From the NCBI RefSeq assembly GCF_055900595.2, contig NZ_CM148325.1: 64,000 nt of DNA; one strand, 5' to 3'. The notes beneath the pieces are model-generated. The model was not told where the DNA came from. It searched no databases and saw nothing but the letters and a program-made list of their open reading frames with translations. Each line of letters opens with the position of its first letter. The first letter of the stretch is position 1. Shown here one piece after another: positions 5,154 to 5,630 of the stretch. The translations under genes and the position numbers were made by a program.

Positions 5154-5583
5154 ATGGTCAATACATTTAAATGCCGGAAACAGCAGACCTGCTTTCAGCC
5201 GGAGCGCACGGGGGCGATACTTTATCTTTTCCACCCTGCTGCAGGTGATTATCTTCAGCACCGGATACGGTGGAATAAATGGAATACGAGATTCACTGTT
5301 ATTCAGCTCCCTGTGGCGGATACCCGTGTTTCTTTTTCCAGAACGGATAAAAATTATTGCAGCGGTTGTCGGTATTATTCTCTGGACTACGTCACTGACA
5401 GCACTCTGTTATTATTTTATTTATAGTCATGAGTTCTCGCAGAGTGTTCTTTTCGCTATGTTTGAAACGAATGCCAGCGAGGCAGGAGAGTATTTCAGCC
5501 TTAAACTGTTGTTTATCACACGGGTATATACCGCAGTTTGCATTTTCCTGTGGACACGCCTGAAGGCAAAAATCAAAAAATAA
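5154..5583 (+). pseudogene. EptC/CptA-like phosphoethanolamine transferase, N-terminal fragment only, frameshifted near 5225 and truncated
   Basis: Translation ...STLLQVIIFSTGYGGINGIRDSLLFSSLWRIPVFLFPERIKIIAAV...FAMFETNASEAGEY...WTRL closely matches my recollection of the E. coli EptC N-terminus; ends at TAA 5581..5583, far short of a ~570-aa enzyme. Confidence 0.6.
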
Positions 5584-5591
5584 CAGTTAAG

Positions 5592-5620
5592 CCCCCACCA
5601 ACCGCTGCAGTTGGTGGGGG
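5592..5620. terminator. GC-rich hairpin between the truncated eptC-like fragment and the integrase 3' end
   Basis: CCCCCACCAA-9 nt-TTGGTGGGGG read directly; T-rich run follows on the minus strand after ~8 nt. Confidence 0.4.
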
Positions 5621-5630
5621 ATGGTTTATT

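Follow-up and report, generated by a model that had tools for sequence, protein, structure and literature searches.

The ecf operon of pO157 is a lipid A/lipopolysaccharide (LPS) modification system (PMC2323221, PMC2811833); it is plasmid-borne, and its gene ecf4 is MsbB2/LpxM. Here we describe a copy of this operon in a stretch of 64,000 nucleotides (contig NZ_CM148325.1 of RefSeq assembly GCF_055900595.2; hereafter the window), in which the EptC-like gene ecf3 breaks off shortly before a perfect hairpin and a convergent integrase gene (int). The window copy resembles the operon of pO157 and of the enterohaemorrhagic Escherichia coli (EHEC) plasmids in sequence identity and in gene order, the colinear arrangement ecf1-ecf2-ecf3 having been retained, but it is chromosomal, lies in an integrase island, is dead, lacks ecf4 and belongs to a divergent lineage. 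The integrase end of the locus resembles P4-type tRNA-Phe/selC island integrase modules in its domain architecture, its P'-arm region, a degenerate tRNA-Phe core and a hairpin downstream of int, although the window island occupies a non-tRNA site. Our preferred account, to which we assign a probability of roughly 80%, is that a decayed copy of a plasmid-type ecf operon was fused by imprecise recombination to the tail of the integrase gene, that the hairpin is the integrase module's own conserved stem-loop, and that the whole represents ordinary island decay. The ecf3 stump is an ordinary decay scar, and RefSeq, through the Prokaryotic Genome Annotation Pipeline (PGAP), already carries a partial-pseudogene flag for it ('incomplete; missing C-terminus').

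The features on which this account rests are:

5161 to 5562, plus strand: remnant of ecf3/CptA (EptC-like), codons 1-142 of 573, with 74% amino acid identity to pO157 Ecf3 residues 1-142 and a match to EptA_B_N.

5557 to 5562, unstranded: recombination joint CGCCTG, 6 bp lying in both homologies; ecf3 reads CGTCTG or CGTTTG and the integrase backbone CGCCTG.

5563 to 5583, plus strand: read-through tail KAKIKK and stop codon TAA (5581-5583), encoded by the backbone; AAGGCAGAAATCAAAAAATA is also present in relatives without ecf3.

5592 to 5620, unstranded: perfect hairpin CCCCCACCAAC-CGCTGCA-GTTGGTGGGGG, with arms of 11 bp (5592-5602 and 5610-5620) and a loop of 7 nt (5603-5609).

5631 to 6818, minus strand: P4-type tyrosine integrase of 395 aa, identical to RefSeq WP_001218736.1 (Pfam Arm-DNA-bind_3, Phage_int_M and Phage_integrase; NCBIfam PRK09692).

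Alignments of DNA and protein to intact ecf3/cptA stop at window position 5562, the CTG of ...WTRL in codon 142, where homology to pO157 ends in ...ACACG(C/T)CTG. Homology to the island backbone, as represented by the related islands L003 and L004, sets in at 5557 (CGCCTGAAGGCA...) and runs through the hairpin into int. The gene is thus cut and joined to backbone DNA at 5557-5562, which supports the proposal of an earlier note on this DNA that a deletion or recombination scar lies here. The alignment to an intact homologue also corrects two details of that note, which had put the end of similarity at 5569 (~7 nt too far to the right) and the end of the frame four codons beyond it; the fused frame reads six backbone codons and then stops. 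Because the ecf3 and backbone homologies overlap by 6 bp, the joint is taken to be a microhomology joint, and, its position being observed, we infer from the aligned sequences that it formed by illegitimate, microhomology-mediated recombination.

The abrupt truncation of the EptC-like gene was borne out by comparison with complete homologues. The open reading frame (ORF) at 5245-5583 on the plus strand encodes 112 aa and matches Pfam EptA_B_N, the membrane domain at the N terminus of phosphoethanolamine transferases. The same frame stays open upstream as far as 5161, and the 140-aa translation from there fits the NCBIfam CptA models at positions 24-143 of 577 only (156 bits against a cut-off of 404). 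The remnant retains the N-terminal multi-pass membrane domain of CptA/EptC alone, its C-terminal 431 codons being gone, and it lacks the periplasmic sulfatase-type catalytic domain, which in intact Ecf3 (573 aa) occupies residues 237-529 (Sulfatase). The start codon of the ancestor, ATG, is ATA at 5161-5163, and three in-frame deletions have accumulated. An intact homologue that naturally ends at this point was not found among the annotated homologues, which are 573 aa long. When the 140-aa remnant served as a protein query, the matches were all short or partial fragments (78-228 aa) without a shared C-terminus; full-length homologues were not among the returns, and the search is hence uninformative on a natural end. 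No lpxM/msbB2 homology was found right of 5562, and in total the window operon has lost ecf4/msbB2 and 75% of ecf3. Intact ecf3 also contains a 12-bp tandem duplication (...TATTTCAGCCAGTATTTCAGCC..., around L002 6270-6290), of which the window lacks one unit at 5494-5500, an in-frame slippage deletion of 4 aa.

A 92-nt probe (window 5564-5655) was run against 5,426 complete E. coli genomes and matched 42 of them, 29 with the window-type joint and 13 with a copy of ~75-80% identity beside a related integrase and without ecf3. The 29 carriers, of chicken, swine and human origin, all share the identical joint, and int at 100% identity was never seen without it; the scar is therefore considered old enough for fixation in this island lineage. 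Among the 29, the insertion site was inspected in strains 23CRST011 (L001) and B771 (L012), both of which carry the island at ynjA like the window. Five of the 13 relatives were fetched, together with a sixth copy (L017) from the integrase search. They lie beside lptG, ulaD/ulaE, zntA, yhfS and glnH, with L017 at a tRNA-Phe att repeat, and the order after the integrase is hairpin, tetratricopeptide repeat (TPR) gene, EcsC, outer membrane protein (OMP) gene and yebF. In all six of these loci (L003, L004, L005, L013, L014 and L017), none of which has ecf3, the hairpin and its flanks are kept ~10 nt after the int stop codon. Because of this conservation in relatives without ecf3, the hairpin is older than the joint and part of the integrase module, and the earlier note's view of it as a part of the scar is not upheld, the flanks being conserved from 5557 on.

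The left side of the ecf copy is described by three further features:

2064 to 2821, unstranded: remnant of the island-family backbone on the left flank of the ecf insert, with a yebF-like fragment (2114-2287, minus strand) and the 5' part of the OMP gene.

3315 to 4132, plus strand: ecf1-like polysaccharide deacetylase pseudogene (tblastn with pO157 Ecf1, 85% identity; Pfam Polysacc_deac_1).

4135 to 5071, plus strand: ecf2-like family 4 glycosyltransferase (GT4) pseudogene (tblastn; Pfam Glycos_transf_1).

Window 3268-5562 is colinear with a plasmid operon of deacetylase, GT4, CptA and LpxM genes, at 80-86% nucleotide identity to E. coli plasmid L002 and ~83% to plasmids of the pO157 type, whose annotation names the genes Ecf1, Ecf2, 'membrane protein' and MsbB2; at the amino acid level the window genes are 74-86% identical to plasmid ecf. 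All three are pseudogenes. The ecf1 copy, labelled 'frameshifted; internal stop' in RefSeq, is interrupted by a stop at codon 50 and changes frame at residue 251, near its 3' end, and ecf2 has an internal stop, a loss of ~50 codons and a frameshift, with residues 1-111 in frame 1 and 163-367 in frame 2 (both by tblastn). No closer intact relative of this ecf lineage was found among 72,556 plasmids or the 5,426 E. coli genomes. The backbone remnant at 2064-2821 is 74-85% identical to L003 540-1377, L004 2609-3445 and L005 539-1375 ('YebF family protein' is the RefSeq label in L001), and the backbone replaced in the window consists of the OMP 3' part, a hypothetical gene, EcsC, an ISAs1 remnant and the TPR gene. 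A divergent plasmid-type ecf fragment of ~2.3-2.5 kb (ecf1, ecf2 and ecf3 codons 1-142) stands in its place, between the 5' part of the OMP gene and a point ~35 bp past the hairpin. In the proposed history, by one route an in-situ deletion would have taken the 3' part of ecf3, ecf4 and backbone; by another the joint would be one end of a replacement event.

Several observations weigh against this history or blur it. The left joint region (2822-3034) matched none of the fetched sequences, and no insertion sequence (IS) end was recognised there. The overlap at the right joint is complete (6/6) with the backbone only, known ecf3 sequences matching 4-5 of the six bases, and the true microhomology may be shorter than 6 bp. 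None of the 5,426 genomes contained an intermediate island in which this integrase is accompanied by a longer or intact ecf3, which leaves in-situ deletion inseparable from the replacement or insertion of a pre-truncated fragment. As for the hairpin, the U-run on the int strand begins 9 nt past the stem (15-17 nt in the relatives), so that it is not a canonical intrinsic terminator, and an Rfam scan of 4800-7300 at E<=1 returned no family.

The earlier note had described a perfect hairpin with a 10-bp stem and an integrase stop codon 11 bp beyond it; position and perfection stand, as does the approximate spacing, but the stem is 11 bp long with a 7-nt loop and the stop codon (5631-5633) is 10 nt from it. 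Eight of the 11 stem pairs are GC, the predicted energy in context is -24 to -29 kcal/mol, and folding z-scores are -3.9 for the minus and -1.9 for the plus strand. Perfect hairpins of at least 11 bp number three in the window, against 0.13 expected from block shuffles. The other two, also with 11-bp stems, are at 17119-17144 and 47613-47637, the latter (AAAAAGGCCGC-TCT-GCGGCCTTTTT) having the look of a classical bidirectional terminator.

With Rho-independent terminators, bidirectional ones included, the hairpin at 5592-5620 shares a GC-rich perfect stem, its place 10 nt past a stop codon between convergent ORFs and a T-rich plus side, but it differs in that the U-run of the int strand is displaced by 9-17 nt. 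Of the two strands, only the plus strand passes a simple terminator pattern, its 11-bp stem being followed by 8 nt of which 5 are T. Distant int relatives at tRNA-Phe (L018) and selC (L011) carry a different, canonical GC hairpin with a T-run downstream of int; compared with the terminator of these pheU/selC relatives, the window hairpin is of another sequence and lacks a U-tract adjacent on the int strand. Judged by its position, it is most likely the 3' stem-loop of the int mRNA, acting as terminator or stabiliser, and it might also halt plus-strand read-through into int. The hairpin was also sought downstream of the intact plasmid operon (L002), as a possible retained operon terminator, and was absent there.

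The loop of this hairpin is polymorphic. Over window 4600-7100 (2501 bp), strain B771 differs at three positions only, 5603, 5606 and 5609, and with these three changes its loop reads TGCAGCG, the reverse complement of the window's CGCTGCA. The flipped loop occurs in 2 of the 29 joint carriers, each of which is 96.7% identical over the probe (3 mismatches), and the same flip is found in a related lineage, where L005 has CACAGCG and L003 CGCTGTG; the inversion is hence seen in two separate sub-lineages. That inverted repeats can undergo spacer inversion and arm homogenisation when replication switches template between them has been described (PMC8604942, PMC8794818). The window case resembles such quasipalindrome template switching in that a cluster of three substitutions equals an exact loop inversion between perfect arms in otherwise identical DNA, and differs from quasipalindrome mutagenesis in being a natural polymorphism in an island hairpin. 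By this analogy the flip probably arose by template switching, a process that probably keeps the arms perfect and occasionally inverts the loop. Given the flip, the loop sequence is taken to be free of strand-specific constraint. A stem mismatch in L005, which would form a G.U pair on the int strand only, was considered as strand-specific evidence and discounted, the L005 loop being inverted and the strand therefore ambiguous.

A separate comparison concerns the DNA just beyond the hairpin. L003 and L004 are 96.7% identical in their cargo and only 84.8% identical in their integrase modules, with the boundary at 5982 in both. This boundary lies 12 bp from the equivalent of the window joint (5557 corresponds to L003 5994), and two independent rearrangement end-points thus fall just beyond the hairpin. 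The pattern suggests that integrase modules have been swapped between islands.

Two inverted arms around a 6-8 bp spacer are the geometry of tyrosine-recombinase core sites. The 11-7-11 inverted repeat might on this basis be a protein-binding DNA site, either a core of the lox, FRT or dif kind or an operator for the adjacent tyrosine recombinase, that bounds an exchangeable integrase module. The 11 + 7 + 11 layout fits as a likeness of form only; one hairpin arm holds TGGGGG(C), a motif otherwise clustered at the 5' end of int; the L003/L004 boundary and the joint of the window are no more than 12 bp apart and lie ~40-50 bp from the hairpin; and the discordance between module and cargo identities would suit such an exchange. 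We nevertheless regard this as unlikely, since no joint falls in the spacer (all are at least 30 bp away), each island has one copy with no partner site in the window, the arm heptamer is not conserved in relatives, distant int relatives have an ordinary terminator at the same position, and the loop flip cannot come from recombination at a single site.

A related suggestion, to which we likewise give little credence, is that the palindrome, beyond any role as a terminator, is a DNA-level element, bound by Int or forming a cruciform in vivo, that makes the adjacent ~50 bp a hotspot of illegitimate recombination. The palindrome may form in vivo, because the loop flips suggest as much. If the suggestion were true, the hotspot would be a boundary for swaps of integrase modules and cargo between islands, and the ecf3 truncation would be one of its products.

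It is very unlikely that the hairpin was made by, or belongs to, the deletion scar and now terminates the convergent EptC-like and integrase transcripts in both directions, as the earlier note had it. Its place between two convergent ORFs and the terminator pattern of the plus strand would agree with that role. Against it, however, relatives lacking ecf3 conserve the hairpin together with the adjoining 35 bp on its left, 30 bp separate it from the joint, and the plus-strand operon is dead, with its start codon lost and with stops and frameshifts upstream.

It is highly implausible that the short ORF, whether counted from 5245 or from 5161 to 5583, encodes a real small membrane protein with a natural end. 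The frame 5161-5583 is open, and some RefSeq annotations read 'phosphoethanolamine transferase domain-containing protein', but the annotated intact homologues examined have 573 aa and include a sulfatase domain, ATA has replaced the ancestral ATG, integrase-module DNA supplies the final six codons and the stop, PGAP flags the missing C-terminus, and the database matches are fragments of varying length with no common end.

Finally, the idea that the hairpin is a dispersed repeat, such as a repetitive extragenic palindrome or bacterial interspersed mosaic element (REP/BIME), boxC or a miniature inverted-repeat transposable element (MITE), that landed by chance is scarcely credible even for a GC-rich, intergenic palindrome: it occurs in only 42 of the 5,426 E. 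coli genomes with 1-3 copies per carrier genome (one in the window), the places listed, one for each record, all overlap an integrase gene and none is on a plasmid, and an exact-arm scan of 100,044 species representatives gave 10 matches, all in unrelated phyla. These 10 matches (metagenome-assembled genomes (MAGs) of Bacillota, Actinomycetota and Bacteroidota) were judged chance or unrelated.

Fusion of a decayed ecf copy to the integrase-gene tail thus remains our preferred account, and its significance is small. It records a single decay scar that has become fixed in a mosaic pathogenicity island of E. coli, and it shows that an LPS-modification operon of the ecf type once existed on a chromosome and was inactivated. 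In practice, the stump should be annotated as a pseudogene rather than as a 'phosphoethanolamine transferase domain-containing protein', and screens for resistance or virulence should not score it as eptC- or mcr-like. Leads of greater use than the scar are the loop flip, islands that apparently target boxC repeats and a tRNA-Phe-type integrase at ynjA/ynjB.

The last of these concerns the right end of the island:

6819 to 7001, minus strand: island end (attL side, P' arm) with TGGGGGC repeats and a degenerate core resembling a tRNA-Phe 3' end, GGGTACTACC, from comparison with the empty K-12 site and pheU/pheV-type loci.

7006 to 7554, minus strand: ynjA, the core chromosomal gene flanking the island (annotation; K-12 comparison).

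The integrase starts at 6818 in RefSeq, the mechanical ORF reaching a TTG at 6848; its arm-binding, central and catalytic domains are all present, and the island end at the ynjA junction is 183 bp upstream of int. The island stops at ~7001, where it directly follows the stop codon of ynjA and the Shine-Dalgarno sequence of ynjB (TAAGGAG). Window int and pheU/pheV-type int share 85% nucleotide identity, a similarity that extends to the region upstream of the gene. In those relatives the tRNA-Phe 3' end reads ...GGGCACCA; the window equivalent, GGGTACTA, directly abuts the stop codon of ynjA and the Shine-Dalgarno sequence of ynjB. The insertion junction is TTAAGGAG|GGTACTACC in the window against TTAAGGAG|AGATGATG in K-12; window 6990-7010 was compared with L009 2055-2080 and with L018 4820-4920. 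On these comparisons the event resembles insertion into a secondary, non-tRNA site, with the ynjA-ynjB pair split as a result, and a P4-type integrase derived from tRNA-Phe-type integrases placed the island just after the ynjA stop codon. The heptamer TGGGGGC has 10 copies in the window, four of them within 1.3 kb around int (5591-5597, 6820-6826, 6852-6858 and 6864-6870); the three at the 5' end of int are conserved in relatives and are probable arm-type sites, and the fourth is in the hairpin arm, where the 7-mer is not conserved. In the pheU-type relative L018, a different and intact phosphoethanolamine transferase gene (183-1856, 557 aa) is convergent to int-TPR, and such transferase genes are therefore considered to recur as cargo next to this integrase family.

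The island family with int, TPR, EcsC, OMP, yebF and dolP occupies at least five chromosomal loci. Its island-end joint is always ...CCCCT(N)TGGGGAG|GATCTATTGATATC (L003 7430-7460, L005, L013, L014 and L004), and the empty K-12 glnH-glnP site (L016 1690-1740) is a boxC repeat, CCCTCTCCCCTATGGGGAG|AGGATTAGGGTGAGGGG. One copy of the family splits ulaE at codon 17, at the boxC look-alike CTCCCCGCCGGGGAG. These junctions suggest that the integrase of the related islands targets boxC-type repeats; a literature search on boxC, integrase and genomic island found no paper describing such targeting.

More broadly, the start of the window lies inside a large, IS-riddled and decayed mosaic pathogenicity island whose cargo includes iha, sitABCD, sodC, ibrAB-like genes and pseudogenes of integrative and conjugative element (ICE) genes. 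IS and transposase fragments occur in the left part of the window, for example at 705-929. From 1887 on, the window is 99.4% identical to strain 23CRST011 and it differs from that strain over 1-1886; the island has therefore been rearranged between carriers.
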